Origin: Nitrospirota bacterium | Lineage (GTDB): Bacteria; Nitrospirota; UBA9217 | Reading direction: 5' to 3' | Assembly: GCA_963818475.1 (NCBI GenBank) | Contig: CAWFSF010000006.1 | Location: forward strand, 2,048,001 to 2,112,000 | Length of the DNA stretch: 64,000 nucleotides | In this document: positions 11,336 through 64,000 of the stretch, piece after piece | Layout: every line of letters begins with the position of its first letter | Position numbering within the stretch: position 1 is the stretch's first letter | Made by a program: the position numbers and the translations under genes | The notes under the pieces: generated by a model | Database searches by the model: none | What the model saw: the letters and a program-made list of their open reading frames with translations, nothing else | Told to the model about the DNA's origin: nothing

Positions 11336-11355
11336 TTTAAGTTATCCTCCTTGAG

Positions 11356-12536
11356 TTATTTCACGTCGTCTGCTGACCAGAATACGTACGGGTTCGATCT
11401 TGGGGCTTTCACCATCTGCGGCACGGGCGGCAGACCAGTTGATTCGAGCATGGATCTCATGCCAAGACGGTCAACAAGTTCGCCGATACGTTCGCGGTTC
11501 TTGCCATGGTCATCCCACCATTCCCAGAGCTTGCGGATAAGGTCCTCAAGGTTGTCGTACGGTGCTTCAAGCTTCATGAAAGGAACGATGACCCAGCTCA
11601 TGAGGGCACCGGTCACGATCGGGGCTTTGCCGCCGAGCATGATGGTTGCACCTTTTTCTTTGCCCGGGCGAAGCGCCTTCGGCATCTGATTGATGCAGTG
11701 CATGCAGCGGTTGCAATCCTTGTCATTGATCTTGAGCACAGCAGCCGTCGAAGCTCATGCACTTGGTCGGGCACATTTCGACGATTTCGGTCTTGATATC
11801 CATTTTTGAAGCATAGTTCTTTACTTCTGCTGCATCGATACGGATGGTGTCTCTCCAGGTGCCGATGATGGACATGTCAGCGCGGGCGATCGGCAGCGAC
11901 GCAGTCGTTGGCGCAGCCGGAAACCTTGATCTTGAACTTGTAGGGGAACGCGGGACGATGGAGCTCATCCTGGAACTTGTGGGTGAGCGTATCGCAGATC
12001 TCCATCGAGTCGATGTTCGCGAACTCGCAGCGGGACATACCTGCGCAGCAGCTCGGGGTGCGGAGGCAGGAGCCGGAACCGCCGAGATCCCAGCCCTTTG
12101 CCGTTGTTTCAGCAAAGATGGACTCAAGCTTGTCGGTCTGCGTACCGAGGAGGACCAGGTCGCCCGTGGAGCCGTGGAAGTTGGTCAGGCCGCTGCCGTA
12201 TTTGTCCCAGATGTCCATGAGATCGCGAAGAGCGCTCGTTGTATAGTAGAAACCGGCAGGCTGGTTGATACGGACGGTGTGGAAATGAGCGACACCCGGA
12301 TATTCTTCGGGAAGATCGCAGTAACGGCCGATAACGCCGCCGCCGTAACCAAGGACGCCGACGATGCCGCCGTGCTTCCAGTGGGTCACCTTGTCACGAT
12401 AGGAACGCTCAAGGATATTGAGCAGGTCTTGCGCGGTGTTGCTCTTCTTTGCGGACTTCTTGATCTCTTTTACGAAACTCGGCCATGCGCCTTTTTCCAG
12501 TTCATCAAGCATCGGTGTCTTTGCATCTTTGCTCAT
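11356..12536 (-). CDS. dsrA: Dissimilatory sulfite reductase alpha subunit (frameshifted)
   Basis: [72 protein letters not shown]. Confidence 0.97.
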
Positions 12537-43116: not shown

Positions 43117-44101
43117 CGGTCCTCCCGTATTCCTTCGAGAATTTCGAAAAATCACGAACATCCACTTTGCCTCCCGTGTCAGCCACGAAATCATAATCCG
43201 GGTTGTAGATGCCGTCATCGCGCGTGGTCCTGTATTGGGCCTTGAATGCTGCAAAGTCCTGGTCGTCGACCTTCCCATCAAGGTTGCTATCGGCAAAGAA
43301 GCCCGGCACCGGACCGACAATCGAAACGAGCGAGCTGTTCTGCGGCGCTTTCCTGTAATGGACCAGGGTGGCAAGATTTCCTGCCCGATAGATGCGCAGC
43401 GTGATCGTTTCATTACCCGCTACAATACTATTCGAGCCGTCGTCACCGAAGAGATTGTTCAGGTCCAGCATGCCTTCCGGAGAGACCGCTCCGTCACCGA
43501 CAAATGCGCTGATCGGATACAGGGAAGCCTCCTCTTCAAGGACGACCAGATCGCCTAAACCGGGCTCGGCTGCCGTGTCTGAGGGCCGGATATATACGGG
43601 AAAAGTCACGAGATCATTTGCAAGTGCCTGAACCATGCCGTTCACGGGACGATACAGTACAATGTTCGAGGCGGTGGTTACCTGCTGGAGCGCCGAGTAG
43701 CTGACGCTGCCGGGATTCAGCGAATCTCTCGTAACGGTCCTGACAGAATAGGTTGTCGCAGGCAGAACGCCCGACACGCGAACCTTGACGATCCCCTTTT
43801 CCCGTGCTGCCTGCGCAGCCTTGCTGATCGCCGCCGGCATCGGCGTAATGAGTATTCCTTCGGTCAACCGCTGCTGCAGAGAATTATCCGCATACACCTC
43901 TACCGACGGATCGGCAACGACATCGGTCATCCAGATTACGGAAAAAGAGGAAGGTGTGACATCGCTGACACGGACAGCGCTGGTTTCAGGAACAGCGTAA
44001 ACCGGCGATGCACACATACAAAATGCCAGATAAAGAATGAGGCTTGCGAAATGAAAATTGAAGGACTCCCCTATTCTCTGCTTGCATGTCAATCTTTTCA
44101 C
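43106..44101 (-). CDS. Secreted FN3 protein with C-terminal dockerin-like domain
   Basis: GTG start coupled to the upstream stop; signal peptide ...PVYA; FN3 VRVSDVTPSSFSVIW; two Ca-loop repeats ADSNLDGKVDDQDFAAFKAQY and DFVADTGGKVDVRDFSKFSKEYG. Confidence 0.8.
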   Translation of the reverse strand: MKRLTCKQRIGESFNFHFASLILYLAFCMCASPVYAVPETSAVRVSDVTPSSFSVIWMTDVVADPSVEVYADNSLQQRLTEGILITPMPAAISKAAQAAREKGIVKVRVSGVLPATTYSVRTVTRDSLNPGSVSYSALQQVTTASNIVLYRPVNGMVQALANDLVTFPVYIRPSDTAAEPGLGDLVVLEEEASLYPISAFVGDGAVSPEGMLDLNNLFGDDGSNSIVAGNETITLRIYRAGNLATLVHYRKAPQNSSLVSIVGPVPGFFADSNLDGKVDDQDFAAFKAQYRTTRDDGIYNPDYDFVADTGGKVDVRDFSKFSKEYGRTDVQ

Positions 44102-44929
44102 CGCACACCTCCCGGGCAGGTCGGGCATGCCCCTGTTGTCTGCTGTTTGCGCAACTTCTCAGAAATCGTTGCCTCATATCCGCCGATCAGGTACCTGACA
44201 TCGTCTTTCGTACTCTGCAGTATCCTGTTGGTATATCCCTCAGCATCATCCGCAGCCGCAAAGATCAGGACCACAGGCAGCGGCTTCAGCATTTTCGCTG
44301 CAAGGTCCTTCTTTTTTCCCGTGCCCGCCAGCATGCTCTTCAGCTTTTCGACCCGTTCATCGAGGGTTTTGCCGGGAACAGGTTCGCTGTGTTGACTGGG
44401 CTGCTGCTTTTGTTTCTTTGCATCGCGCAGATCGTATACCTTCATCGGCACCGAACTGGCAATCGCCCATTTCAGGTCGGCGGCGGTCACTCCGCGGTCT
44501 GGCTCTTTGGTCTCGATAATCGGGAGGCCTTCTCTCTTCCATCCGGCAATCCCGCCCTCAAGCACAGACACCCGTTCATGCCCCTTTTTCACCAGCACCT
44601 GCGCCGCTTCACGTGCCGACTTCTGGCCGAGAGCATCATCAATGAGAATGAGCACCTTCTGCGGTGGAAATTTCTTGTGAATAAGAACGTCCGACGGAAT
44701 ATTGACCGAGCCTTCGATGTGGCCGGTTTCATAATTCGAGGCAGCCCGAACGTCTATCAGCCACAGGCCGCTCCCTTCGTTCATATAATTCATCACCCGC
44801 TGTCCGTCGACCCATTGCCAGCCGGTGGCGCGTGAGCGACGTCTCCAATGAGCAGAAGGGTTGTCATGCAAAGCAGCTGCACATTCAAAATTAGAAATTT
44901 AAAATTAAGATTTTCATTTTTGTATCCAT
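44098..44929 (-). CDS. Secreted rhodanese-like protein, probably non-catalytic, with C-terminal CPTC (N-terminal frameshifts)
   Basis: LIDVR...YETGHIEGSVNIP...LEGGIAGWK; active-loop position reads IDD (no Cys); second degenerate domain (YDLRD...YLIGGY). The signal peptide is reconstructed from ATG 44929. Confidence 0.75.
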
Positions 44930-45022
44930 AAAAAGACGTCAGCCGCAGTTCACCGAGAAGACCGCAAAAAAATTATATCATTGTCCAGATTTCCAAACGC
45001 ATTTAGATTCGTTACTGATTTG

Positions 45023-45072
45023 CCCCTCACCTTTGTCCTCTCCCCAGCGGGGAGAGGGTAGGGAGAGGGGGG
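45023..45072. repeat. REP-like CCCTCACC...CTCTCCC..GGGAGAGGG palindrome (intergenic)
   Basis: CCCCTCACCTTTGTCCTCTCCCCAGCGGGGAGAGGGTAGGGAGAGGGGGG. Confidence 0.7.
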
Positions 45073-45205
45073 ACTGTAACAATATTTAATTCGTTTGCAT
45101 TAATAAACATAAGACTAAAGTTGACTTCTAAATCAAAAAAAATATATTCGGGCCCCTCGTTTTTGTTCGTGCTTTGCCCACTCCACAAGCCGCACTGGAG
45201 TGGAG

Positions 45206-48200
45206 TTAGGGTTTCCACCCATCCACCCGGTTTTTCATGATAACGATCAGTCCGTCGCCATGGTTGAGCACGAAATCGGCGCCTGCGGCGGACACATTCC
45301 CCAGCAGCTCGCGACGCACAGCAGCCGTCTCCCAGAGACCCGTCTGGTTGTTGAATCTCCGCACACTCTGTACATTATCGAGACCGATTGACTCGAGCAG
45401 GGTGTATGCCGTGTATCCGTTCGGGAGGGTGAGCATTCCGATGTAATTCGTGCCCGGAAGCAAAGTATATAAACCCGTTTCGCCGCTGTCGGCGACCTCC
45501 AAAGAACCGCTGTTTTCGGCATACAGACCGATTGCCATGCCCTTTTGCAGCGCAATATCTGCACCCGCTGATGTGTCCATGAAGGTCCCGTTCTGGCTGC
45601 TGTAAGCCACGACCTTTTCAATCCCGATCCCGTTTGAATTCGCTGCTATCAGCGAACTGGTCGTGGGATATGCTCCGGCGAATTTGTTCCCTACCGCAAT
45701 GAGATTGAGTCCGGGTTTGATCTCCACCGCAAGGGGAACGGCTTCCACCTGGAAAGGCGACCAGTAGATCCGGCTGATACCATCCCGGTCGTCCTGCCAG
45801 GCCAGCACGCCGTTCCCGAGCGCCGGTTCCTCCTGCCGGGCGGGGTTTGCCGTGAGCAGCGCCCCGAGGCCCGATTGCGCGTCAAAAAATGCAAGGTTCG
45901 GGTTGTCGATCCCTGCCTCGTAGTCCGTGTAGACGACGACCTTCTCCAGCACGGTCGCCTGTGAATGATCGCCAGCGCCGTAGGTCACCCGTATCTCACT
46001 GTTCGGCGCGGGCGAGTAATAGATATCTCTCTGGTTGTTCCTCTGATCTGTCCAGACAAGGGCGTTGCCGGAAAGTGAAGGCAGCGTCTGGTTGTAACTG
46101 TCCACGGTGTACCGTACCTCCGGTCCGCTCGTCAGATCGTACGTATAGATCTCCCCGAGGCCGTGCCGGTAATCTTCCCAGCTCAAACTCGTGCCTGCCA
46201 GGGCCGGATGCATCTGGTCCCGCACATGACTGATCATCTGCGTCTGATTGTGCGTTGTAAGATGGTAGGCAAAAATGTCCCAGTTCCCCTTCCGGTCATC
46301 CTGCCACGCAACCCAGTTTCCTGCGACAACAGGCCGTTCCTGGTTGCCTGCATCGTTGCAGATCAGGAATTCCTGATTCGTCGTCAGATCATAACCGTAG
46401 ATGTCCCAATTGCCGTTCCGGTTGTCCTGCCAGACAATGATGTTGCCGTCGATGGCCGGGTACTGGTGGTCTGAAGAATTGGCAGTGACGGCAACTGAAG
46501 AAGAACCTGCTGACGTATCCTTGGTATATATCTGCCAGGCGCCGCTCCGGTCATCCTGCCATACAACGCGCGTACCCGAGATCCTGGGATGCTGCTGCGC
46601 GCCCGCGACATTCGGGTCAAGCGGCTGTCCCGTGAACCAGTCAGCCACCGTGATCGGGATCGTTCGTGTGGTCGTATGGCTGGTGGTTGGACTGCTGTCG
46701 AGCCCGTCGGTAACGCTCAAACGAGCGGTATACGTGCCGGTCGGGACGAGCGTTCCAACCGAATCCCTGGCGTCCCACGAGAGAACCGCCTCAACATCTT
46801 TGGTCAATGCTGTTTTCAGGGTCCGGACGACCGCTGTCGGGGAATAGGTTTCTCCTTTTGCGATATCGATCGTTGCCTGGAGTGCGCTCTGGTCATCGGT
46901 GGCCTTGACCGCGAAGTTCGTTGTCCGGGCAGCTGCAATCCCTCTCGGGGCATAAGGCGAGATGGTGGAGGGCGACGCCTGGAAGGTAAGGACCGTCGGG
47001 GCGTTATCGTCAACCACGATGGTCGCTGTCTTAGTAGTTTCCGTGTTCCCTGCCCGGTCCACGCTGTAGTATTCAAGCGTATAGGTCCCGGGATCTTCAA
47101 TAGTGAATGGATAGGCCGGGATAAAATCTTCATCTATCCCCGTAACCTTTTCGAACATCTGGCCGACGCCGCTTCCTTCGTCATTGTCCGTTCCAAGGAG
47201 AACGACCCTCGTTGCGGTCGTGATGTAGTACGTCGGATCTGTTCCGGTCGCAGGTCCATCAAAGATAACTCGCGTGCTCGGCGGGAAGGTATCTTCCGCA
47301 GGCTGAGTGAAGACGAGTTTATACGTGCCGGGGGCGGAGGCATCGGCCCGATAATCAAGTAAGTTCAGGCTGAATATCTGCTTATAGTTCGTGTCCAGGC
47401 CTTCCTGTATCCAGAAGTTGTTCGGATCGAGGTGAACACCGTCTGCCCGCACCACGTCGAGCAACGTGAGCATCCCCTGCGCCGGATCAGGGAGCCGCGC
47501 ATATAGCCATCCGGTCGTACCTGTCTGGAGCGACACCAGGACCTCCGGTGCTGATGGCGTGGGCCGTGCCGGAGGCGTCACCACCTGCATAACAGCGACG
47601 GGAGAGCGGGCATCGTCGGTTTTTCCCGTATTGCCAGGTATTTCGGATTCAAAGATCGAGTCCGGCAGACGATCTGTGTTTTTGGTCAGGTCCGTTGAAT
47701 AAGCGAGAAAATCAAGCCGGCTGTCACGGCCCGGCAGGTTCACCTTGACCCGGTGCGTCAGGTAGTGAGTATTTGTTTCCTTAAGAAGCGATGTAAGCTC
47801 GCCTCCGAGTTCGGAATCATGAGAGAACGTCGCCTTGAACTCGGTTATCCGGCCGCTCAGCGTCGAGATCATCTCCCAAAAGGCCGTCGCGATCTTCATG
47901 CTGTCGAGGGTCCCGATGGAAACGGTGAGCGATGGGGAAACGGCGCTGTCGTTGACGGCGGATCCGATAAGCTTGAAGTCTACGAGCAAACCCTGCTCGT
48001 TCTCGACGATCTTCGGCTGGGCTGATTCGATCTTGAGGTTGATCGCAGGTCCGTAACCGTCATTCAAAACGCGGACAGCCAAAGGATACGGGATCGGAGC
48101 TTCAACCTGGGAGGTAAAGGGGTTGTCCCCGAGCACTTCGTAGGGGGTGAAATAATCAAGAACAAGCTGCGCTTCGGGTTTTACGATGATCCGGTCGGGA

Positions 48201-48668
48201 TTCACGGTAACCACTTCCTGTTTGCCGGCAACAGTGTACGTCAGTGTTGCGCCCACCCAGTATATCTGGCCGGTCGATACTGTTCCGCCTGCGCCGGGCG
48301 ACGGAATGATCAGCCAGTGAATTTCTGCCGCGGTAGCCGCCTTCACTGTTCCCGTGCCGTCCACTGCCGCGATGTTTTGCACTGATGAAACCCGGGTGAA
48401 AAAAATGGGATTTTGCCACTTTCCCTTCGTCGTCCTTGATGGTCACATCTACGCGGATATTGGTAAGGTCCTTGTCGGGAACGTTGTTGGTGATGACCAT
48501 TTTCGCGTCGAATGCGATCCGTTCGAGAGTGAGTTCCTGGAGAATCTCTATTTTGACCTCGGAACAAGCTCCTATGGCGCAGGAGGTGCGGGGCGCAGCA
48601 AGGAATGATAGGACAAGCGCCGCGAATATGAGAAGCAGATTACGATATTTTCTTTTTTTAGCGTCCAT
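45206..48668 (-). CDS. Large secreted protein: conserved beta-rich N-domain + Ig + FlgD-Ig + beta-propeller (frameshift near 48400)
   Basis: Signal peptide MDAKKRK...TSCA; CSEVKIEILQELTLERIAFDA; FlgD-like LSWDARDSVGTLVPTGTY; repeats Q..P.I.G..(I/V)VWQD.R.G.WDIY (Methanosarcina-type surface propeller). Confidence 0.8.
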
Positions 48669-48827
48669 ATTCCCTTCCCTGCTGTAAGTTAGCCTCAAAG
48701 ACTCAATGAAATAATTTTTTCTGCCGCTATGCTTTATCCGTGTCCGATCGGTGCTCATCGTAGGGCTAACCCGATACTACATCTCTCTCATTCCGTACTC
48801 TGCATTCCAAATTCTGCGGTCTGATCG

Positions 48828-50183
48828 CTACTCCGAGAGTTGCCGCAGCACTTCGGCACCGGTTGAAGTGGCCATTGGTGTATCCAACCCTGATCCATTC
48901 ACCATATAAACAAACGCTATTTTTTTACCATCCATCCGATCGATGTATCCGGCAAGGCTATAGGCGTCGGCTACTTGTCCGGATTTCACTCGAATACGCT
49001 CGGACCGGTATCCGAAGTCCTGTAATCTTCCATCCATTCCCGGCCTCGACAGACTCTCATAGAAAACATTGAACCACGGTTTGACCGTTGAAACTTGCAG
49101 AAACGTGACCATCTGCTCGGCTGAAATCCGGTTCCTGTTTGAGACACCGCTACCATCAGCGATCACGAGTCCGCCTAGCTGGACACCCAGTTCGCTCAAA
49201 AAACTGTTTACGGCCCGGATTCCCTTTTCCTGAGTACCGGGAGCTCCGTATGCTAGAGCTCCTAGTAAGAAAAGCATATTGTCTGCCGCAACATTCAAAC
49301 TCTGTTTATTAGTGTCTCTGATCAATGCGTTAACGTCATACGAGCTTACACGAATAACTTCACTCGCGTGAGAAGGCAGAATTCCTCGTTTGGTCACTCC
49401 AGAGACCATAATTCCTTGTTTCCTTAGCAGTGTTAGGAAAGCGCCTGCTGCATAAAGTGCCGGATCGCGCAGCGAAAAACGATCGTGAAAAGCGGGAGTA
49501 TTCCCTACCTCGCCTGTTATTTCATAAGTAAGATCGTCGATCTGGCGTATCCTCAGTTTATTGGATGGATTAAGACTGACCTTGACCGCGTCATTCATTG
49601 GATCGACAACGATACGCTCTCCTTCAATTGCAATTGAAACTGTGTGCAGATCGAGACCTAGGGCAGATGGGACTCCATATGCAGGCCCGGCATATTTGCC
49701 GTTCCATCCCTTCACATCGAAGAGCGAATCGTCGACGATTACATCTCCGGCTACTTCCTTGATGCCCAATGACTTTATTTTCCCTACCGCGGCAAGCAAA
49801 TCTTTGGTCGAAAGCAATGAATTGCCGCTTCCTTTTATAATAACGTCTCCATGAAGCTTCCCACTTGAAATGCTTCCATGAATTGAGATGACGGTGGAGA
49901 AATCGACTGCTGAGCGGCTATTTTGCTCAAGAAGCGCTGCAGTGATAAACAACTTTAAAAGCGATCCGGGGATTAAAAACCGATTTTCTGCGTTTCCCGC
50001 ATGAATCACTTTTTTTCCTGATGCGATGTCTACTGCGGCTAGTGACCATTCTGTTTTATCCGAGAGTCGCGCTGCGACTCTGATCTTGAATGCCGAGCGC
50101 TTGTACAGAAAAAGAAACATCGACTCCTTCGTTGGCTCGTAGCAAAGAGGGAGCCAAGAGAATGAATAAGGCACAAAATACAC
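48828..50183 (-). CDS. dacB: D-Ala-D-Ala carboxy/endopeptidase, peptidase S13 (PBP4)
   Basis: SxxK (PGSLLK), SxN (SLN), DGSGVS.RNRIS and KSG motifs. Start uncertain. Confidence 0.85.
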   Translation of the reverse strand: MYFVPYSFSWLPLCYEPTKESMFLFLYKRSAFKIRVAARLSDKTEWSLAAVDIASGKKVIHAGNAENRFLIPGSLLKLFITAALLEQNSRSAVDFSTVISIHGSISSGKLHGDVIIKGSGNSLLSTKDLLAAVGKIKSLGIKEVAGDVIVDDSLFDVKGWNGKYAGPAYGVPSALGLDLHTVSIAIEGERIVVDPMNDAVKVSLNPSNKLRIRQIDDLTYEITGEVGNTPAFHDRFSLRDPALYAAGAFLTLLRKQGIMVSGVTKRGILPSHASEVIRVSSYDVNALIRDTNKQSLNVAADNMLFLLGALAYGAPGTQEKGIRAVNSFLSELGVQLGGLVIADGSGVSNRNRISAEQMVTFLQVSTVKPWFNVFYESLSRPGMDGRLQDFGYRSERIRVKSGQVADAYSLAGYIDRMDGKKIAFVYMVNGSGLDTPMATSTGAEVLRQLSE

Positions 50184-50207: not shown

Positions 50208-51086
50208 CTATTTCTTCTTTCTTAGTTCCGTTTCGATAATTGTCTCAAAACCATGCAAACTGCGGTCCTTCAGCTGCTTACCGTTTACAAAAATGGTAGG
50301 TGTGCCGTGCACGCCTGCTTGATTGCCCTCGGCAAGATCCCGGCTGATCAGTCCCTGAACCGCCGGGCCGTTCATGTCTTTACCGAACTTATCAAGATCA
50401 AGGCTCAGTTCCTTGGCGATATCCATAAATTTTGTTTCGCTCAGGCCTGACAAATTTTCAAATATCTTATGATGGTACTCCCAGAACCTTCCCTGTTTAT
50501 GAGCCGCAAGAGCTGCGGTTGCAGCCGTACGCGAAAGCTTGTGCATCGGAAGCGGAAAATTCTTTTCGACCAGTTTGACCTCTTTGGGATATTTCTCCAG
50601 CACCTGCTGGAGTAGCGGATCGAGCCGCGCGCAGAATGGTCATTGGTAATCGCTGAAGATCGCTATGGTCACCGGCGCGCTCTCAGGCCCTTTAAAAGCC
50701 AGTCCGCTCAAGTCGAATTTCTGCAGTACTTCCACACTTATGAGTCTGATCGTTTTTGTGGTACTGCTTGAAAGCATAAGAGTGTTTGCATTCGCCTGGG
50801 AGGAGTTAGAAATCCGATCGAACGATTTATCCACCGGGATTTTGCTCAGCACTTTGTCCTCGGCAATGGAATAGACCGTTATTTCTCCGGGTGTGAGAAT
50901 ATATGCCGTCTGCCCGTCTGTCGATAACGCCGTATCAAGCGGCGCGGCTTCTACGGTGAGCTGCTTTTTGAGCGTCCATTCCACTTCTGCAAAAACAAAC
51001 TGCGGCAGGATTAAAAGCACAATAACGGCAACTAAGAGTATGTTCAGGCTATTCATTCTATTTTTTAATGATCCTGTAGACTGCAC
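50208..51086 (-). CDS. DsbA/thioredoxin-family selenoprotein (in-frame UGA = Sec in UPFC)
   Basis: ORFs 50640-51086 and 50208-50603 are in the same frame, separated only by TGA at 50640-50642: APVTIAIFSDYQ-U-PFCARLDPLLQQVLEKYPKEVKLVEKNFPL...GVHGTPTIFVNG. Signal peptide present. Confidence 0.88.
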
Positions 51087-51175
51087 AACAACTCCTCCGA
51101 ATGTTTATTAAGTTCAAACAACACCACACGGCATACAATAATATCCTTAACATCCCTAGTCACTTGAAACGAAAT

Positions 51176-51889
51176 TCACTTCTTGACGCCCTTAATTTTG
51201 GATTGATTCAATATGTGATATATTTTTTCTCGGTTTTTTTCCTCGATTACTTCAGCCCGTAAACAAACATGTTCAAAAACAGAACGCCCTGCTTCGTCCT
51301 TTATCTCGACTGAAGCGCCGCTGTCTATTAACAATTTGACAATTTTATAATTGCACATCGCGGTAGCATGCATTAGTGGCGTCCATCCGTATGAACCTTG
51401 CAAGTTGACATTATGACCATTAGAAATAAGACTCTGAATCAGGTTGATGTCTCGGCCGTAAACAGCTTTTATCAGCTCTGGTTCTTTAGCAGGATCGAAT
51501 GATGCAGGTAAAGTCTCTAGCAACCGTGCCTTATCCAGCAATTTTACTATTGCCTGCTTTACGTCTGGGCTAGCAGTTTTCGGGTTAACGCATATATAGT
51601 TATATACGGTGAATCCTTTATTATCTATAACATTTACTTTTCCGCCATTGTTCAACAGAATCCTAGTTATTTCCAGATCACACTTAGCTGAGGCATGCAT
51701 AAGCGGAGTCGACCCATATTTATCTTTTAAATTTACATTCACACCCATTTCTAGTGCTTTTTCAACGTATTTGACATTACCTTTATCTATTGCTTCAAAC
51801 AATTCGGCGTCTTTACCTGCCCAACTCATGTTAGAGCTCCCTAGGCACATTATTATTAGCACCTGATATAATATTTTCTTCAAATACAT
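51176..51889 (-). CDS. Secreted ankyrin-repeat protein, candidate immunity protein
   Basis: Signal peptide ...SNMSWA; two duplicated ankyrin blocks (GSTPLMHA, GWTPLMHA), each with a Cys pair; AT-rich; directly downstream of the toxin-like C-terminus. Confidence 0.85.
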   Translation of the reverse strand: MYLKKILYQVLIIMCLGSSNMSWAGKDAELFEAIDKGNVKYVEKALEMGVNVNLKDKYGSTPLMHASAKCDLEITRILLNNGGKVNVIDNKGFTVYNYICVNPKTASPDVKQAIVKLLDKARLLETLPASFDPAKEPELIKAVYGRDINLIQSLISNGHNVNLQGSYGWTPLMHATAMCNYKIVKLLIDSGASVEIKDEAGRSVFEHVCLRAEVIEEKNREKIYHILNQSKIKGVKK

Positions 51890-51941: not shown

Positions 51942-54900
51942 TTAAAAACTGCTCAAACCGTCTTGTCCGGTTGATGGACTGGATCTACTGGTCGGATCAG
52001 AAGCCTCCAATGCGTCTATGCTCGCGGCTAATTCTCGAGGCGTTTCAAAACCGTACATGTCATCGGCATCGACATCTTCTCCGACAACAGTCATAATACA
52101 ATCTGATGCCCATGCAGCACAGGTATTGGTGATAGTCCAGTAACTTGGTGTATTGATATAACTAATCAAAGCCTGCTTTTCATCAGCAAACAGCATGTAG
52201 TATCTATTGTGATTGCCCGAGGATGACTCATAATTAACCCTGACATCGCTTCCGTCATTATTATCCCCTCTTTGGATGACAAGCCAGTGATCGTCAGGCC
52301 GACAGCCCATAGGTTGTTACAAGACCGGACGTAACGTCTGTCACTGTAATCCACGCATGACCATCAGTATAAGACGGATCTATTTCATTTTGTAATGATG
52401 AGTGAACACCTAGAACAGTGTCATAAACGAGAACGTTTAGTTTGACTCTATTGCCACATTCAGCCTCAATTGTCTTATAATCTGTTTTACTTGATGAGAC
52501 CGTATCGAAGGTCACAGTTATTGTTTCTCCTGACCCAGACGCGCCCGAACTTCCGCTCCAACTAGGTTTCCCATCTGGCCATGGAGCACTGGAAGGTGTT
52601 TTTGCAGCAGTGAAAGTAACTATTGATCCTTTCATTATAAAAATAGTTTTAGTAGTATCCGGACTATCAGTATCCGATGTTTTTCCACGACCACTAATAG
52701 AATCTATCTTTACAACATACGTTTGAAGCATATACATCGGCTGGTCGTTAAAGCAATTGCAGTTGGCATATACAGAGACATCGTAAACGCCTGGCGATGA
52801 ATATGAATGATTTATAGTCGTGCTTGTCGTTGAATCTCCTGATCCGTCTCCAAAGTCCCAGAAATAAGTAATATCACAGTTCCCAGTAGCAGTTACAGAA
52901 TAATTGACCGTTTGGTCTATTGGTACGACATCCGTCTCCTTTCCATCTGCATAAGCTGATGTAATTGTTAAACTTATCGTTTCGCACGTTTTATTCCCGA
53001 AAAGGTCCGCCTTACAAACGCCTGGATTTGGCGTATTCTGATTGCAGCATTCGCCTTCCGCCTTGAGATTACACTCGCTGCACTGCTGCGGATTGAGATC
53101 GAGTAAGCTGTTTGCGGACAGTGATAACGATCCCGCCTTTAAACTGCTAGTCTGAGTAGTCTGAGCGTCCGCACACGCAACGACTTCGACGGTATCCGAA
53201 GGCTGCGCATCGGTGCAATCGCAGTTCACGTAGACTGTGGCATTGTAGATGCGCGCCGATGGCAGTATAGGTATGCGATATGGACGAGGTTGTCGACATA
53301 TCACCCGATCCGTCGCCGAAATCCCAGAAGTACGTGAAGTTGCAATTTCCATCCGGAATTGCCGTGAAGCTCACCGGCTGATTGGTATACACGACCGCCG
53401 ATTTATTAAGATTAACGAGAAGACTGACGCTCGTTAAAACGACCGGCTCGCACGTTCCCGCTTTACAGATTCCATCAATATTGCAGCATGTCGCAGGATC
53501 ATCCGGCACAGGCACTTTAACCCCATCCTGGCACTGATTACACATGTCATCCGGGATGGGCCCTGTGATCGGCGTGTTCTCGCACCCATTCGCTCCGCAT
53601 GAATCCTCGGTGCACGGGTCACCGTCGTCGCAATCGAGCGGATAGGACTGGCAATCACCGTTTTCGCACCAGTTCACGGTGCACGGGTCGTTGTCTTCAC
53701 AATCTTTGGGCGTATTGACGCACCCGTTAGGTCCGCAAGAATCATCCGTGCACGGATCGCCGTCGTCGCAATCCAACGGGTAGGACTGGCAACCTCCGTT
53801 TTCGCACCAGTTCACGGTGCATGGGTCATTGTCTTCACAATCTTTGGGAGCGTTGACGCACCCATTGGGTCCGCAAGAATCATCCGTGCATGGATCGCCA
53901 TCGTCGCAATCCAGCGGATATGACTCGCAGCCGTTCGCGCCGCACCAATCTACCGTGCAGGGATCGCCGTCTTCGCAGTCCAGAGGATAAGACTGACAGC
54001 CTTCCCCCTCGCACCAATTGACCGTGCACGGGTCACCGTCTTCACAGTCGCTGGGCGTGTTGACACAGCTTCCCGATTGGCAGGAATCTGTCGTGCACGC
54101 GTTGCCATCATCGCAATCTTTTGGTGTGCTGATGCAGCCGCCGGACCCGCAGGAATCATCGGTGCACGGATTGCCGTCGTCGCAGTCAAGAGGATAAGAC
54201 TGGCATCCGCCGTTTTCGCACCAGTCAACCGTGCACGGATCGCCGTCTTCGCAGTCCAGAGGATAGGACTGACAACCGCCGTTTTCGCACCAGTTAACCG
54301 TACACCCGTCTCCATCATCGCAGTCAATGGATGTGTTGATACAGCTTCCCGACTGACAAGAATCGTCTGTGCACGCGTTGCCGTCATCGCAATCTTTGGG
54401 TGTGTTGATGCAGCCGCCGGACCCGCAGGAATCATCGGTGCATGGATTGCCGTCGTCGCAATCCAACGGATAAGACTGGCATCCGCCGTTTTCGCACCAG
54501 TCGACCGAGCACGGATCGCCGTCTTCGCAGTCGAGGGGATAGGACTGGCAACCCCCATTTTCACACCAGTTCACCGTGCATCCGTCTCCGTCTTCACAAT
54601 CGATGGACGTGTTGATACAGAGGCCGTCCTCGCAGGAATCATTGGTGCAGGAATTGCCGTCGTCGCAATCCCTGGGAGTGTTGATGCAGCCTCCGGACCC
54701 ACAGGAATCATCGGTGCACGGATTGCCGTCGTCGCAATCCAACGGATAAGACTGGCATCCGCCGTTTTCGCACCAGTTGACCGAGCAGGGATCTCCGTCT
54801 TCGCAGTCAAGGGGATAGGACTGGCAACCGCCGTTTTCGCACCAGTTAACTGTGCACCCGTCTCCGTCATCGCAGTCAAGGGATGTATTGATACAGCTTC

Positions 54901-57900
54901 CCGAGACGCATGAATCAGTCGTGCACGCATTGCCGTCATCGCAATCTCTGGGTGTATTGATGCAGCCGCCAGCCCCGCAGGAATCATCGGTGCACGGATT
55001 GCCGTCGTCGCAATCCAGAGGATACGACTGGCAGCCGTCTTCGCACCAGTTCACTGTGCACGGGTCGCCGCCGTCGCAATCTATGGGAGTATTGACACAC
55101 CCTCCGGAACCGCACGAATCGTCCGTGCACCCGTTGCCGTCGTCGCAATCCAGAGGATAGGATTGGCAGCCGTCTTCGCACCAGTTCACTGTGCACGGGT
55201 CGCCGCCGTCGCACACTACAGGCTCGTGGGTACATGCACCGTTTGAACAGGAGTCATCCGTACATGAGTTATTGTCATCGCAGTTCATGCAGCCGCAGTC
55301 ACCTGTCGGCAGAGGACCGGGCTGTCCAGGAGCACCCCCGCCGCTTCCGCCTGAACTACCGCCACCGCCACCGTACCACCCGCCGCCGCTGCCGCCACCG
55401 CTACCACCGTGCCGCCACCGCTTGTCGGACAGGTCGTTGGTACGCCGACATTCCCGCTGGTGCTCGCGGTTGCTGTCGCTCCTGACACAGGACATGTTTC
55501 CGCCGTACCGGATGCCGTTATGGGGAATGAGGAAACACATCCTGCTCCGTATCCGCGTACTTCTTCAAAAAGCGAGGACAAAGCTGAAGCAGCGAACAAT
55601 TGAAGTGAAGAATCGGGGTTACATGCGTCATTTCCTGCATCACGGAGGTTTAAGTTCGCGGCCACTGTTTGCCGTTTAGTGACCCTGAAGGGCATCGTTA
55701 TCTTCTGTTGCGCCCCAATTCTGGTCGGTATCGACGAAGTGAAGACTTCTACGTCGTAGTCCAAGAAGCTGGTCGGGAAAGTTATTTTAACGTCAACTAC
55801 AGCTATCAGCCCGTAGTTGGTGATGGTAAATTCGCCGTTAAAGACCTGCCCAGGCAGCATTTCGGGAAGATTAATGACTGGAGGCTCAGTGACGAGCACG
55901 GGTAACGGTACATTGGTAGCAAATGTCTGAGTGATTACGATCTCGTATTTGTCCTGTATTGTCGTCGGCACCACACTCCAGGTGACGTCGACAAGCTTTA
56001 CTTCCAAAATTATGGAGGCAGTGGTTGTTATTCCCGGACTTACGACAAATGTCCCGGAATAAGGCAAATGTCCCGGCGGAGGCGTCACATTAAAGGAATA
56101 TCTTCCCTCGGGTATGTCATTCTTCATGACGGTGCCGTCTGTACCGCTCTTTACGGTATAGATAAGATCCGTGAGCAGTTGATTCTGGAATGTGATCGTG
56201 GCATCGGGCATTTTTTCCGCCAGCATATTCTGCACGGTAAAATATACGCTGCCGACCGCGTTGCTCGATACGGTCACCTGGATGTGATACGTATAGGGTA
56301 TATGATTATCGGAGTAAATAACGATTTGATCGTCATAAACTCCTTGCGCAAGGGTGCTGGACGGCACTGAACATGAAGCTGACCGACTTGGAAGAACCCG
56401 GCAGAATATCGCCGATGGTTTTGTCCTGTGTAAGACTCATCCATGATGTGGACGGACCTTCGATCCGCGCATTTTTGAGGGTGTCCTCTCCCGTATTCGA
56501 GATCGTGAAGGTGGCAATCTTCTGGTCTCCCCGCACCATACCGGTATCGATATAGGACGGACTCGTGCTGATGATCGGGCTGAGGCTGACCATGATGATC
56601 GAAGCATTGAGCGTGACGGAGAGTCCTTCAGCGGTCGTTGCCTTCATTGTCGCCCAACCGGTATCAGGCGCGGACGTATCCGCCGTGAGACGAAGCGTGA
56701 TCGACTGCTTTTCCCCTGCGGTAAGCGTTGTGTCGCCGTTGTTGATAACTCCCGCGACGATGCCGCTGCTCGATGTGGTTTCAAACGCCAGACCGGTGAG
56801 AGCGCCGCCGCCGAAGTTGCTGATCGTGACCGGGATGTCGAGACTGCGGTTTCTCGCCAGTCTGACAGTCGCCGAGGTCGGATTGATCGGAGATTCCGGC
56901 TATGGAGAACGTGGCCTGGACGGTCCTGTCCTTGACATCGGGGTGCACCGCCCAGAGGCTGTAGGTGCCTGCCTCATTGCTTCCCGGCGTAAAGGTGTAG
57001 CTGAAATTGCCGGAGGCATCGGTCGTGACGGTGTAGAACCGGTCGAAGCCGTTCACGGAAATGCCGAGCTTCACCGGAACGTTCGGAACAAGCGCCCCCT
57101 CACCCCCGCCCTCTCCCGCGAGGGTAGAGGGAGTGTTAGAGATAGCCGAGCCGTTGATGATAACCGGCTGGGCCATGGCATAGAAGGTTTTATCAGGCGC
57201 TGCCACGGCGCGATAAGCAGTCTCCTGGATATAGGACTCCACTGAGCCTTTCATACCCGGCGCCGTGACCTGGTCGGACTTCGAATAATGATAATAGGTG
57301 TTCTCGATCACTGCCTCGATGATCACCTTATAAGGGGCGGAAACAGGCACGGGCAGCAGGATCGGATCGGTCATGAAGCTTTCGTTCGGGTTGATCCGCG
57401 CAACCGCGTATCCCGCACCGTTCACGATAGCAGCGCCTACGCGCTGGTCCAGGTAACCGGTGGACAGGAGGTTTCCATCCTGGTCCTTGAGATTGATCCT
57501 GACCTTTGTCGTCTTCGTATTGTTTTCGCTCGTGACGAGCTCCATCTGGCTCGTGCCGATGTTGTTCACCTTGAGCCGCACCTTCGCGTCCGTGTTCCGA
57601 ACAAGCGGATCATTGAAGATCTCCATGCTCGAACTCGATCCCTGGACCTCTGCCGACGTGGTCCTGGAGAGCTTAATGGCAACGCCGGGCGACGGCGACC
57701 AATTTGCCTGGATGAATACGGACACCGGAGAAAGAGCGTCCGCTGTCGTGGCCGCAACCTTTTCCAGCTGAAGCGTGGTGTTGGCGGCGAGGCTGAACGG
57801 TCCCAGGATCGTGCTTGCAGGAGCAGTACCCACCTTGACGTCGATTGAATCAATGCTCAGGCCAAAGCCAGAAGCTAATGATATGATGATGGGCACGGTT

Positions 57901-60900
57901 TCGAGCACACCCCTCCTGAGGGTAGTCCCCTCTTTCAGGCCGAGCGTTAGATCGGGTAGTGCTACCTCTTTGACCGGGCTTTCATTCTCCAGATTGTCCA
58001 CTGCGGAGACGCCGTAGGTCGTGTTCGACGCACCATAGCCATCGGTATAGGAGAGATCCAATACCGGGTACGGCGTAACGCGGCTTCCGTTCCGGTAGAT
58101 ATGATAGCCTGCAATAGTGCCGTCCTGCGGCGACTGCCAGGTGATCGTGGGAGCAGCATCATCGATACGCTGGAGCACCAGATTTCTTACCGGAGACACC
58201 GGGAAATCGATCTCCTTGATCTCAGACAGCAGGCCTTCATTCCCGAGGCTGTCCACGGCGGCAACTGCATAGAAGCGATAGGTTTTCGAAGGCGAAGCGT
58301 CCACTGCCGTCGAGATCGGGACCTTTGCCACGGGCGTGAGACCGGTTGATGAGGTAAACGCGGCGTTCGACCGGTACAGATGATAGCCCTTGAGAGGCAG
58401 TACGGATTGAGAATCGACCACTGCGTCCCAAGTCGCGGAGACGCCGCCGCTTCCGAGAGAAAGCGATAAATTCTGAGGAGCAGGAGGTCCTGTCCTGTCG
58501 GAGACTGCCTGCACTTCGGCAGAGAGCGGGCTCTCGCTTCCCATAAGGCCCACGGATGTTATTGCATAGTAGTAAGTGCCGTCATCCGGCGGCGTGTCCT
58601 GGGCCGGCGATCCTGCACTTCCGGTTATAACCTTTGTCGGGGACGATTCATTCTCCGCTCTGCGGTAGACGTTGTAGGTAATGGCAGAGCCGCCTATGTT
58701 GTTCAGCTGTTCGTACATGACCGGGTACCAGGTAAGCGTGACTGCGCCTGCCTTTTCCGATTTCGCTGCAAGGCCGTCCGGTATTCCGGGGGACGGCACC
58801 TGATCGCGGTACAGCAGGATATACCGGCCTGTAGAGACGATAGTGCCCACATTTCCGAGTGTATCTTGTGCTGAGTTCATGATGAACTCGGCCTTGCCCT
58901 CGGGCATGCTGGAGACATTGAGGGATCCCGCCCAATGAATGCCATTGTCCGTCGACGTCATGCCGCTTACGAGCGAGGTCGTTCCATCCGACCCCTTGAG
59001 GGTAATTTCAGGTGTCACGACTGAAGCTTCATTCAGGATGACGGCAACGGCAGCAGGATCGGACTTGATCTGCAAGGTCGCCGCTGGAGATTGGACTGCG
59101 GCTTCCGGTCCTTTGACGTCGATGGTGATGCCTGCCCCCTGCCCGTTCCCGCGATTTCCGACCATGTCCTTGCCCGAGAATTTGTACGTTGTCGCTCCCT
59201 GAGGGCTTTGTGCGGTGATCGTGAAGGCGCCGTCGTAGTGCGTGTCGTCCACCTTGTTCATCGTGACCACGATGGGAGAGCCTTCCTGCGGCTCGAGGCT
59301 GAAGAACGGCAGCTCCTTGAGCTTCTCGCTCACCGTGACCGCAACTTCCACGCTGCCCGGACCGACAGCCGAGTTCGGAGTTATGAGTTGTGAGTTCTGT
59401 TTGTATTGGATAGTTGCGACGGACGGCGCAGTCCCGTCCGTAGACAGTGCTGCAACATTCGATATCCCGCTCTCGTTGCCTGCGCTGTCCAAAGCCGTTA
59501 CGGCATAGTACCTGAAGCCGTCGTCTCCAGGGTTGTATTCCTTGTACTGGTACGTTATCGGAGAAGTGTTCGTCGCCGTCACCCCTGCGTCCGTCTTTGA
59601 ACTGAAGGAGGACGGACTCATATACAGGTTGTAACCTGAAGGCATCTCACCCGTCGGGCTCGTCCAGGTAAAGCGCAAAAGCCCTCCTGTCAGGACCTGT
59701 GCAGCAAGATTCTGAGGAGCGGGAGGTGCGCCGGTGTCGACCAGGATCTTGTAATCCGGCGCATAGGCGCTCTCGCCTCCGCGATGGCTCGCCTTGACTG
59801 CAAGGACATTGTCTCCTTCAACAAGTGCTATGGACGGGAAGGTGAATGTTCCCGTTCCTGTCGTACCTGCGGTCTGGGCCGTGTTGACAACGACACCGTT
59901 CACTTTAAGCGTGACGGTCGTGAAGAGCGGGGCCGTGCCCGTTGCGGTCACTATATAGCTGGGTGTCGTCTGTGTCTCGCTATGGCCCGTGATCTTCGGG
60001 GAAGCGGGCTGTGCAAGACTCACGATGACCTGTCGCGGGTCTTCGGTTGCGTTCCCTTTGCTGTCCGTTGCCCTGAGCTTGATCGTATGATTGCCGTCGG
60101 TCGCAGCAACCACATTCCAGAAGTAAGAAAGGCTGCCACCGTTCTGGGTCGCAACAACGGTGCCATCGATGGAAAGCTCCATCGAGCCCATCGTGCTTTC
60201 AACATCATACGCTGTTGCGGTGATCGTGATCGGCCCGGTGACCACCTGGCCGGTGATGATCGAGAAGGTATCGATGGCCGGTCCTGTTGAGTCGGCCAGG
60301 GGTGTCACGCTTATGCTCTGGACATCGGACCGCTCGGCGCCTGATGTGTTCAGTACCGTGACCGCGTATTGATAAGTGGTGTCGTTTGTGAGGCCCGTGG
60401 CGTTGTAGGTCGTTGCAGTCTTGGCAACATTACCGACCAGGGTCATCGTGCCGATGCTGGTCAGTTGCGCTGTCGAAGGTTTGCTGTAAATATTGTATTG
60501 CTTCACGTACGGCGAACTTACCGCGCTCCAGGAGAGTGCAGCCTTGCCGCTGCTTGTTGCGGCGGTGAGATTCGTGGGGTTCGCGAGCCGCGTTACCGCT
60601 TCGACCACAGCGCCACGGCTCTCATGACCGAGCGTGTCTTTGACCGTTATTTTGAACTTGTACTTCGTTGCGTCGGAGAGCCCCGTTTTCGTATAGGTCG
60701 CTGCCGTCTTTCCGAGCGGCGTTCCGGTGTCGTACCCTGTCCCGCCGTCCACGTACACGATATGGTCCGCGAGATCATTGGTGGAGTTAAGGCTGGCATT
60801 CCAGGTGATGGCAATGAAGTTTCCTTGCGTGTCTGCGTAATCGGCTGCCGCAGCAAGATTCGTGACATCTTCGGGAGCCTTTGTATCGGTCGGCACTGCC

Positions 60901-63900
60901 GATGCGATATTCACGGTATCGATCTGGTTCCCTGCCTGATCCACTGGCACGACTGCGAAATAGTAGGTGGTTCCCTGAGTAAGCGCCGTTGCGGTGTAGG
61001 TCCTGGTGCCGTTGTTCACCGTGCCGATGGGTATCATGCCGGCGACATCGCCAAAGACCGAGAGAGATTGGTAGACGACGTAGTAGCCGACGTCGGGCGT
61101 CTCGGGATAGGCCGTCCACGACAAGGTTGCCTCAGTGCCGTTGCCGCTGCCGTCCGCAATGAGCACACCGGGGCCGAGCGGCGCGGGAGGAGCGGTATCG
61201 TACAGAATATCGACCGTCCTGGTCGTGGTGTTTCCGAGCGCGTCGGCCGCGGTGAAGACATAGCGATTCGTAATACTCGATATCAGGTTTGCGTCATAGG
61301 ACCAGGTGTCGCTGATATCGGCCGGGCCGTAAAGCTGCGTGTCGCCGAGCTTCACGATACAGCCCGGCTCCTTCGTTCCGGTCAGGGTCTGCGTTGCCAC
61401 CGACGACGGGTTCTGATAGGTGTTCACGGTGAACGTCGGCGGAGTAGTGTCGAGCACGATGGCCGCGGTCGTGGGAACCGAATTGTTCCCTGCCGCGTCG
61501 CGGGCCGTGATGGAGAGTGCATTCGTGCCCTCGGAGAGGGGGTAGCTGTAGCTCCATGGTTCACCCGTTGTCGGGTTCGGATCTGCAGCAACCCGCTGAG
61601 TCCCATTGATGTAGATGGCTGAGCCGAGTTCTCTGGCGCCTTTCAGGATCTGGTTCCGGTTGTTGGTGGGCGTTGTGACGTTATCCAGGCCTGGTGATGC
61701 AGGCGGTGTTGTGTCGAGGACAAAGGTGCCGGTCGCGGCACTGGTCATCACGTTCCCGGCTATGTCTTGGGCTCCCGATACATTTACGGTATAGGTGCCG
61801 TCGCCAGTCCCGCTGCTGAACGTATGACTGCCGTTCCAAGTCTTGTTGTAGTTGCTCCAGCTTTTGCCAGTCCAAACTGGCGTTATGGTACAGAAGATGA
61901 GACAAGAAGACTTCACAAATGAAACCGACGGGTCGATGGTTGTGGACATCGGCTCATTGAATGTGATACTGAACTGCACGCTCTCGGTCTTGTGCGGGCT
62001 TGTGGGGCTCATGGTGAGAGACTGGACCGTGGGCAGTCCTGTATCCAGGGTGAAGCTGAAGGTAAGCGTTATCGTAGTTTCGAGCTGGTCAACGGGTTTT
62101 ATCTTGACCGTGTACACTCCGTCTCCCAAAACAGTACCTGGATCAGGCGTGAACACAATATGGCCGCCGGCTTGCGTGGTCCATGAACCGCTGATGACCG
62201 TGTTGTTCGAATACGTGACCTCATTGTTTTGGATCGACGCCTGAAGATCGACGCCTGAATTATCGTCAACCAAGACGATGTCGATTGATGCGAGCTGGTT
62301 CGTGAATCCGTTGATAGAAGGCGTTGTGGACGATATCCTCGGAGCAGTGGTGTCCCTGACAACATTCACGGTTACCGACTGACTCGGGTTGCCGGCCTCG
62401 TCCTGCGCAAAGACGACGAAAGCGTTATTCCCTTCGCTCGTGAGGTTAACGGGATAACTCCATGCACTATCACCATATGCCGCGCCGGTCTTGACATTGT
62501 TGACGAACAGGTATGAACCCGCTTCCTTCGTTCCGGCTAAGGTAATCGAACTCAGCTTCGTCGGCGTTGACTGAGGAGTGACGATTGGTGCAGCCGGAGG
62601 AAGCGTGTCCACGGTGAAGGTCATTTGCGCTGAAGGGCTCGGGTTCGCTGCCTGATCAACGGCATATGCAGTAACAGTGTTGCTTCCTTCGTCCAGTCCG
62701 GATACCGTGACGCTCCAGGTGAGGGCTGTAGGATAGGATACGGCGCCGACTGTCGCGCCTGCGCATGCGGCTATGATCTTTATTGAATCCAGGCTCTTCG
62801 TGCCGTTAATCGTCTTTGTGGTCGTGCGGCTCGGAACGAGTATGGGATCGATCGTCGGAGGCGGAGGCGGCGTGGCGTCAACCGTGAAGGTCATACTATA
62901 AGATGAACGGTTGCCCAGCAGGTCGGTCGGGTGTATCGTGGCCGTATAGGTTCCTTCGGTCATGGTATCGTCCGGTGTGAACGTTACTGCTGCAGTTGAA
63001 CCTCCGCCGGACGTGGCCCAGGTGCCCGAGGGATCGGCGCCGGATGTTTTTGTTACAGAAGCACCGGTCAGAGTTGCGTCCAGGTCGATGGTGGAGAACG
63101 GCTCACTGAGGTTGAATTTGATCGATCCGACCGATGTATTGAACAATCCATTGTTGACCGGGTCAGTGCTTAAAACATCCGGCGAACTCAGGTCGAGGGC
63201 AACGGGAACGAGGACAGCCTGACTATGGAACCCATCGGCATCCATTGCCGTGAAGCTCAGGTTGTTCATGCCAGGCTGCAGGGTATAACTCGCCTGCCAG
63301 GTAGTTTGACTGTCGAGCGGAACTATCGTTGTTCCATTCACGACGATGGCTGTTTCGGCAGGTTTGGAGCCGCTAAGCGTGATGGTCGAAGAAGTAGTCG
63401 GAGTCTGCACCGGTTCAACCGTCGGCGGCTGGATGCTGTAGGAGCGGTAGTTTTCCTGGATCTCCGTGTCCGAAAGCGCGCGGTTGTAAATGGCTACATC
63501 GTCGATTGAACCCTTATACGGCCCGTAGGTGGCAACATTGCCAAATGTTGTAGAAGCATAGACATTCTCCCGCAGGCTTAACAGTCCGGTTTTAACAAAT
63601 TGTCCGTTCAAATACAATCTAGGTTGCTTATTTTCGTACACCACCGCAATGTGATTCCAAGCGGCTAGCGATACGTTGTGGACAAGCAGAGACGGCAGAT
63701 AGCTGCTCCCATGTTCAAATACACTGATCCCGTTGGTTCCCACCGATATTCCCACTCCTGCATCGTTATTACCACCATGTGCAGGGCCAACAGCATATCG
63801 TTGAGCACTCGTGCCTGAAATACCCGAGTTGCTTTCGGAAGTAACATTGCGGGTGGCGGTAGGATATGCCCATAGCATGACAGTAAAAGTATTTGCTGCT

Positions 63901-63998
63901 CCGGCATAAGAACCGGCACCTGCCATTGCATAATCATCAACACCATCAAAACTTCCGGCATAGGTCCCGATCTTGGCGCTTGAGGTGAACGTAGCGCC
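51942..63998 (-). CDS. Giant secreted multidomain protein, over 4000 codons, 5' end outside window: LamG - Ig/FN3 array - Gly linker - 25 Cys-rich repeats - 2 PKD - C-terminal toxin-like domain
   Basis: ORFs 56781-63926, 56333-56647, 55285-56367, 53147-55540, 52294-53352 and 51942-52310 join through single-base shifts near 56890, 56370, 55420, 53255 and 52305. The frame is open to the window edge (GSFDGVDDY, WNHIAVVY, GSIDDVAIYNRALS = LamG). Confidence 0.8.
53564..55282 (-). repeat. 25 tandem coding repeats of 66-69 bp (CDDGNPCTDDSC-type; Dictyostelium CTDC / myxobacterial Cys-rich-like)
   Basis: Counted 25 units with 4 Cys each, of two subtypes (CT.DSC..GC.NTP.D and CTVNWCENGGCQSYPLD). Confidence 0.9.
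57095..57132. repeat. REP-like palindrome embedded in frame in the giant gene
   Basis: CCCCCTCACCCCCGCCCTCTCCCGCGAGGGTAGAGGGA, same family as 45023-45072; encodes PSTLAGEGGGEG. Confidence 0.7.
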
Positions 63999-64000
63999 GC

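Follow-up and report, generated by a model that had tools for sequence, protein, structure and literature searches.

A predicted exported selenoprotein that combines a two-blade propeller with a DsbA-like domain, encoded near a cysteine-rich secreted protein in a Nitrospirota bacterium

When TGA was read as selenocysteine (U), positions 51086 to 50208 of the window (the whole stretch of 64,000 nucleotides that was analysed) gave one minus-strand frame of 292 residues with a single internal TGA, U149, in the motif FSDYQ-U-PFC. The plus-strand reading of 50208..51086 yields no gene. An earlier note on this DNA had placed a TGA at the first Cys of this motif in an otherwise unbroken frame that gene callers split in two; both points were confirmed, as calling with table 11 breaks the gene into ORFs of 148 and 131 aa. 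That note did not mention the two-blade propeller domain described below. The features of the locus are as follows.

48828..50183, minus strand: peptidase S13 (dacB-like) gene, directly downstream of the selenoprotein gene and first of a gene run common to genome G048
50208..51086, minus strand: 292-codon gene for the selenoprotein, with a signal peptide, a two-blade propeller and an ScsC/BdbD-like thioredoxin-fold domain
50211..50729, minus strand: DsbA-like catalytic domain (Thioredoxin_4 85 bits, DSBA 75 bits)
50298..50306, minus strand: G-T-P cis-proline loop; the residue preceding Pro is Thr in 98 of 100 parsed homologs
50595..50612, minus strand: hairpin 2, CTCCAGC-AGGT-GCTGGAG, likely SECIS; 7-bp stem, loop AGGU, -11.3 kcal/mol
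50615..50628, minus strand: hairpin 1, GCGG-CTCGAT-CCGC, the candidate of the earlier note; loop CUCGAU, no G in loop positions 1-2
50640..50642, minus strand: in-frame TGA at the place of the nucleophile in U-P-F-C; inferred to code for selenocysteine
50730..50987, minus strand: pair of YVTN/WD40-like propeller blades, with seven strands paired and an N-terminal strand unpaired in the monomer model
50988..51086, minus strand: signal peptide, predicted by inspection; basic n-region, hydrophobic core, V-F-A end
51092..51098, minus strand: ribosome-binding site GGAGGAG, seen in the sequence 5 nt upstream of the GTG start
51176..51889, minus strand: ankyrin-repeat gene in an immunity-like position, with the giant gene on one side and the selenoprotein gene on the other
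51942..64000, minus strand, running beyond 64000: giant secreted Ig/FN3/LamG protein with a swappable C-terminus, in indel-broken ORFs
53147..55540, minus strand: Cys-rich block of the giant protein, 116 Cys, 13 Dicty_CTDC repeats and PKD; candidate client

Thioredoxin_4 and DSBA cover residues 133-285 of the selenoprotein, while Pfam matched nothing on the first 130 residues, and the propeller has neither a Pfam nor an NCBIfam match. No NCBIfam 20.0 model scored over its cut-off for the protein, the best being NF041057, whose 69.7 bits fall short of its cut-off of 190. A thioredoxin fold with a helical insert, a CxxC-type site and the cis-Pro loop were all found, and the DsbA-like fold proposed in the earlier note is thus supported by Pfam and by structure matches. 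Export, also proposed there, is likely from the predicted signal peptide, which forms a helix in the structure model. The promoter and terminator scan at the locus gave matches no better than chance.

The full-length gene was present in 17 of 401 genomes of the phylum (the carriers), in 8 of 64 genomes of the host's family and in none of the five of the same genus; a partial match in G034 (E 1e-11) and a 15-residue match (L159) were left out. Only two Nitrospiraceae MAG records were found among named full-length matches. In the Atlas, 20 of the 30 listed matches were clusters of a 'hypothetical protein' of about 140 aa, and the top three clusters had 52-104 members, mostly from Thermodesulfobacteriota. 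Genome G019 carries two near-identical copies of the gene 3 kb apart behind an RHS cluster (L136, G019:C30), flanking a transposase-like and an antitoxin-like gene.

The host genome was checked for selA, selB, selC and selD, and all four were present: tRNA-Sec was found, selA scored over cut-off, selB lies right behind selA in frameshifted pieces, and selD carries an in-frame TGA of its own about 21 kb from the selenoprotein gene. The assembly is prone to indels, with rnfC in six pieces and smc in seven; the breaks in selA and selB are attributed to the same cause, and because such frameshifts are frequent in housekeeping genes, split ORFs in this genome are not to be read as pseudogenes. Among the carriers, selA was found in 15 of 17, compared with 193 of 401 phylum genomes overall, and the two carriers without a selA match are 89% and 63% complete.

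Alignment of 26 loci (18 genes of the 17 genomes and 8 metagenome contigs) showed TGA at the U149 codon in every one. Of 120 listed full-length matches, 113 had the N-terminal domain and carried Cys (96), Trp (16) or Ser (1) at this position. Three Trp homologs were placed in a tree group with TGA loci (the tree is a quick version, in which the mis-cut row G307 is to be ignored), indicating that the Trp rows are likely TGA read under another code. The best 150 matches in the 50% representative library included 60 under 600 aa, of which 40 stop exactly before the U149 position, 12 continue with Cys and 8 are fragments, as read from the proteins rather than from codons. An open frame thus continues beyond a UGA at the catalytic Cys, in a genome with sel genes and with a following hairpin that fits the SECIS model, and Cys homologs exist; it is nearly certain that the TGA is decoded as selenocysteine, and the hidden selenoprotein of the earlier note is supported. 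A sequencing error, or a true stop leaving a pseudogene or two separate genes, would have the error-prone assembly with its split rnfC, smc, selA and selB in its favour. The errors seen are frameshifts, however, and not a substitution of this kind; the conserved TGA, the covarying hairpin and the 96 Cys homologs that read through also speak against it, and a stop would cut the thioredoxin fold at its active site. An error or a stop is therefore extremely improbable.

The bacterial SECIS model has a loop of 3-9 nt with G in loop position 1-2 and a stem of 4-16 bp, at 16-37 nt from the UGA and with at most -7.5 kcal/mol (PMC13188914). The earlier note had proposed hairpin 1 together with an outer CTGC/GCAG pairing as the SECIS. 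Its start 11 nt after the UGA was confirmed and the outer pairing is possible, but hairpin 1 is probably the wrong hairpin, as it breaks the loop-G rule whereas hairpin 2 fits the published model. Hairpin 1 was paired in 85.6% of alignment cells, i.e. it is partly conserved, and is possibly accessory. The outer helix was 100% paired with zero compensatory changes, both of its arms being fixed by Cys and Gln codons, and it is mutually exclusive with the stronger hairpin 2. Hairpin 1 with the outer helix was set aside as SECIS, given the codon-fixed arms and the lack of covariation, and may remain as an alternative fold.

Hairpin 2 lies 34 nt from the UGA and falls within the loop, stem, distance and energy thresholds of the model. 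Its loop was AG(G/U)U in every aligned row, its six core pairs were kept in 156 of 156 cells, compensatory changes occurred in three of the six, and RNAalifold (18 rows) also picked it. A hairpin of this kind followed 1.5% of 4000 random TGAs and an equally stable one 0.2%, although these controls flatter hairpin 2, as its structure was derived from the same, related sequences. A like hairpin of the same layout follows the in-frame TGA of the host selD at 33 nt. Hairpin 2 is likely the SECIS, as judged from the sequences; Rfam gave nothing at E<=1 within 50400-50800. A different Sec-DsbA subfamily (L034 and L035, in G034 and G025) carries the same CCAGC-AGGT-GCTGG hairpin nearer to the UGA, over Q-Q-V-L codons. 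A motif-plus-hairpin scan of the genome returned at least 300 candidates, mostly spurious, and six were re-read. Likely selenoproteins elsewhere in the host are a shorter DsbA-like protein with FSDYI-U-PFC (G000:C6:2208929), a second exported DsbA-like protein with FLDFQ-U-PHC and no propeller (about 1907015), a DsrE-like protein with HL-U-GGC (2123707), a TlpA-like protein with TSW-U-TRC (1820173) and SelD (2120909).

The structure model had a pLDDT of 88.9 for the whole chain and 89.7 for the N-terminal ORF. Numbered from ATG 51056, residues 41-107 form seven strands, i.e. a complete blade plus three strands of the next, and residues 24-40 are confidently modelled yet unpaired. The best structure matches of the blades were YVTN and WD40 propellers (1l0q), and they fit two consecutive blades of seven-bladed propellers (Z 11, rmsd 1.6, 75 residues), with residues 30-40 in register with the outer strand of the preceding blade. 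Since two blades by themselves do not make a closed propeller, the selenoprotein probably oligomerises, and the free N-terminal strand is predicted by the model to complete the second blade of a neighbouring subunit. Two-blade WD40 fragments form eight-bladed tetramers (PMC6805158), and by this analogy four copies with eight blades would be the most likely assembly. Mean-field coevolution on a shallow alignment (183 sequences, Neff 108) ranked the pair W27-I106 ninth and gave no ladder; the coupling is compatible, at this depth, with the N-terminal strand lying beside the last strand. Only a few residues link the blades to the catalytic domain, unlike the flexible linker of PmScsC. A word-indexed search with residues 30-130 gave no match, which was a sensitivity miss, as homologs were found by other searches. 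The structure-match lists held no solved structure with a propeller and a DsbA domain, a weak absence.

The catalytic domain resembles 3gyk, Wolbachia DsbA2, BdbD and ScsC most closely (Z 21-23). This structural class spans monomeric oxidases (BdbD, TsdA) and trimeric isomerases (ScsC, DsbA2). Removal of the N-terminal oligomerisation domain turns PmScsC from an isomerase into an oxidase (PMC5524982), and ScsC proteins can work in both directions in cells (PMC11634996). The selenoprotein might be a DsbA/BdbD-type oxidase for Cys-rich exports that regains its oxidised state through VKOR, DsbB or small molecules, with the blades docking or binding substrate. BdbD and TsdA/DsbA oxidases are among its top structural matches, 90 of the 113 listed full-length propeller homologs have C-P-Y-C, and a client with 116 Cys needs net oxidation. 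A VKOR gene lies directly downstream of the selenoprotein gene in the metagenome locus L158, and a weak VKOR match lies 3 kb from it in G011. Neither DsbB nor VKOR was found in the host (91% complete), however, and of the carriers, with their incomplete genomes, only 2 of 17 have DsbB and 3 of 17 a VKOR over cut-off. Selenocysteine in place of Cys, moreover, tends to make a redox pair more reducing. Oligomerisation, too, hinders contact with DsbB (PMC11634996), and an oxidase is rather unlikely. The host has three DsbD_TM/CcdA genes and DsbD_TM was found in 17 of 17 carriers (carriers only were counted), which by itself says little because such genes also serve cytochrome c maturation; together with the few DsbB and VKOR genes, it leans towards an isomerase fed by a reductant. 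One Cys form, P0034, has a further C-terminal region of 300 residues that resembles an FKBP/SlyD-type foldase by eye (no Pfam match), which fits a folding role of the family.

A neighbouring protein with 100 Cys in its repeats had been named as the client in the earlier note. The count was corrected to 116, and the Cys-rich sequence does lie nearby, but it is a piece of the giant, indel-broken gene and the ankyrin-repeat gene lies in between. In G048 (100% complete) the giant is intact, with 4842 aa that are 72% identical over about 2400 aligned residues; its C-terminus is of RHS type with 28 Cys and without the Cys block, and the selenoprotein gene was not found in that genome. In G048 the downstream dacB-giant-rhodanese run is located on a separate contig, where it is preceded by a different gene. 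Within the window the GC content is 0.43-0.50 at 48-54 kb, the swapped part, compared with 0.54-0.58 beyond 54 kb. Because of this swap and the low GC, the selenoprotein gene appears to have arrived, and to travel, with the Cys-rich cassette at the host locus, as seen in one comparison across a contig gap.

The giant protein with its swappable C-terminus looks like an interbacterial polymorphic toxin system, with Cys repeats, PKD, a tip and the ankyrin gene in the host and with RHS and another tip in G048 (L208, G048:C70); the His...Cys pattern of the host tip presumably recalls papain-like toxin tips. The conserved run at 38656-50183 (minus strand; also L203 and L205) was present in 3 of the 64 family genomes and comprises the dacB-like peptidase, a 1058-aa propeller/OmpL47 protein whose gene start (48156-48758) is detached by an indel, a rhodanese, a 340-aa protein and a 1585-aa Ig protein. 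At about 10388-12509 (minus strand) the window also holds dsrA in frameshifted pieces and a dsrB-like match. The description of the host as a strict anaerobe is unproven: dsrA is present, and so are three genes for subunit I of the heme-copper oxidase family.

Cys-rich neighbours were found in 4 of the 17 carrier genomes, host included, with unrelated repeat types. G019 has a 41-Cys protein in the RHS cluster with its two gene copies, in G347 tandem repeat proteins of 32 and 52 Cys end about 30 nt upstream of the selenoprotein gene, and in G353 an 87-Cys protein lies about 270 nt upstream. These genomes are scattered and ungrouped on the quick tree. In the other 13 carriers, the stretches examined (3-20 kb, some short) held no Cys-rich neighbour, and the gene lies beside housekeeping genes, e.g. 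surE/pcm, thiL, ispF and mutS. PF11617 repeats occurred in 10 of 17 carriers vs 36 of 384 other genomes (Fisher p 1.6e-6, a significance inflated by kinship); the host contributes just one weak match. When only selA-positive genomes were counted (by hand), the numbers were 10 of 15 carriers vs 19 of 178 others. The selenoprotein gene is absent from 36 of the 46 PF11617 genomes and from 7 of the 8 genomes that have Dicty_CTDC repeats (PF00526), and PF11617 in turn is missing from 7 of 17 carriers. These counts from sequence point to a link with Cys-rich proteins that is real but not exclusive. The view of the earlier note that the enzyme serves its neighbour gains support at the host locus, given the G048 swap and the three other genomes with unrelated Cys-rich neighbours, but dedication to it fails for the family, where 13 of 17 carriers have no such neighbour in the stretches examined and most Dicty_CTDC genomes are without the gene.

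The housekeeping neighbours would also suit a general periplasmic reductase or protector that acts in DsbG/ScsC-like thiol repair, copper binding or apocytochrome reduction, for which the Cys-rich adjacency would be incidental, and relatives of ScsC do act in copper resistance. Against incidental adjacency stand the G048 swap, the enrichment of PF11617, which holds up when only selA-positive genomes are counted, and the four separate placements beside Cys-rich secreted genes that are unrelated to one another; a general reductase or protector is considered improbable.

DsbA-like and DsbG-like proteins with UxxC are on record as selenoproteins (PMC1794560, PMC13188914), and PF01323 proteins with UxxC are listed as DsbA-like protein form 1 (Table 1, PMC13188914). 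Like form 1, the selenoprotein has a DSBA domain (75 bits vs a cut-off of 25.6) in which the U of UxxC stands where the first Cys would be; it differs in that its best Pfam match is Thioredoxin_4 and in its propeller, which no table entry in PMC13188914 names. The NF041057 DsbG-like/Rcas_1661 family (seleno)lipoproteins are likewise exported thioredoxin-fold proteins with UxxC, but the match to this model covers the catalytic part only, and the selenoprotein has no lipobox Cys and has a propeller. It is thus a member of the broad DsbA-like selenoproteins, outside NF041057. PmScsC, CcScsC and Wolbachia alpha-DsbA2 belong to the same catalytic class (Z 21-22, rmsd about 2.1) and likewise have an extra N-terminal domain, but their active site has Cys and their stalk is a helical coiled coil (PMC5524982), whereas the selenoprotein has selenocysteine, propeller blades and a very short linker, without a helical trimerisation stalk, and does not lie in an scs operon at the loci seen. 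By analogy, it most likely works like ScsC without the stalk of ScsC. The two-blade WD40/YVTN-type unit is shared with the WRAP/PkwA fragments, Pizza2 and Ika, which are engineered and carry no enzyme, whereas the selenoprotein would be a natural scaffold for a redox domain. No description of a propeller joined to a DsbA-like selenoprotein was found in the literature covered, which includes few subscription papers.

The reading favoured here, with a probability of roughly 55%, is an exported Sec enzyme, a blade-built ring of several catalytic domains, that acts as a disulfide isomerase on large Cys-rich secreted proteins. SelB and tRNA-Sec would read the UGA as selenocysteine through the AGGU-loop hairpin, as conservation, covariation and the host machinery strongly suggest, and the signal peptide would send the chain to the periplasm. 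There, strand exchange between neighbours is predicted to close the ring, and several U-x-x-C sites around it would attack disulfides between the wrong partners, as trimeric PmScsC does. By the same kind of analogy, the active sites may be kept reduced through a DsbD/CcdA-type carrier. The main client in the host is likely the 116-Cys block of the giant protein, and in other genomes the enzyme likely serves other Cys-rich exports in trans.

A broader proposal is put forward tentatively, with the odds against it as a whole. The selenoprotein would be a four-headed isomerase on a natural two-blade propeller, adding a third architecture to the dimer of DsbC and the coiled-coil trimer of ScsC, and would represent a widespread unannotated selenoenzyme family that travels with the Cys-rich C-terminal cassettes of the giant secreted proteins of sulfate-reducers. 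When selenium is scarce, the UGA would act as a stop and yield an exported blade-only subunit that co-assembles, which would determine how many active heads a ring has.

New and open to testing are the propeller-ring scaffold and the connection with Cys-rich exports. Cys forms that occur naturally can be expressed easily, and Sec and Cys can thus be compared directly. The finding accounts for no fewer than 20 Atlas clusters of 140-aa 'hypothetical proteins', as halves of a selenoprotein. If the ring is true, it would be a natural example of an enzyme joined to a propeller of two-blade subunits, such as has been proposed as a stage in the evolution of propellers, and would add a new design for multi-site disulfide isomerases. 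The finding also offers a handle on how sulfate-reducers that mostly have neither DsbB nor VKOR fold proteins of more than 100 cysteines.
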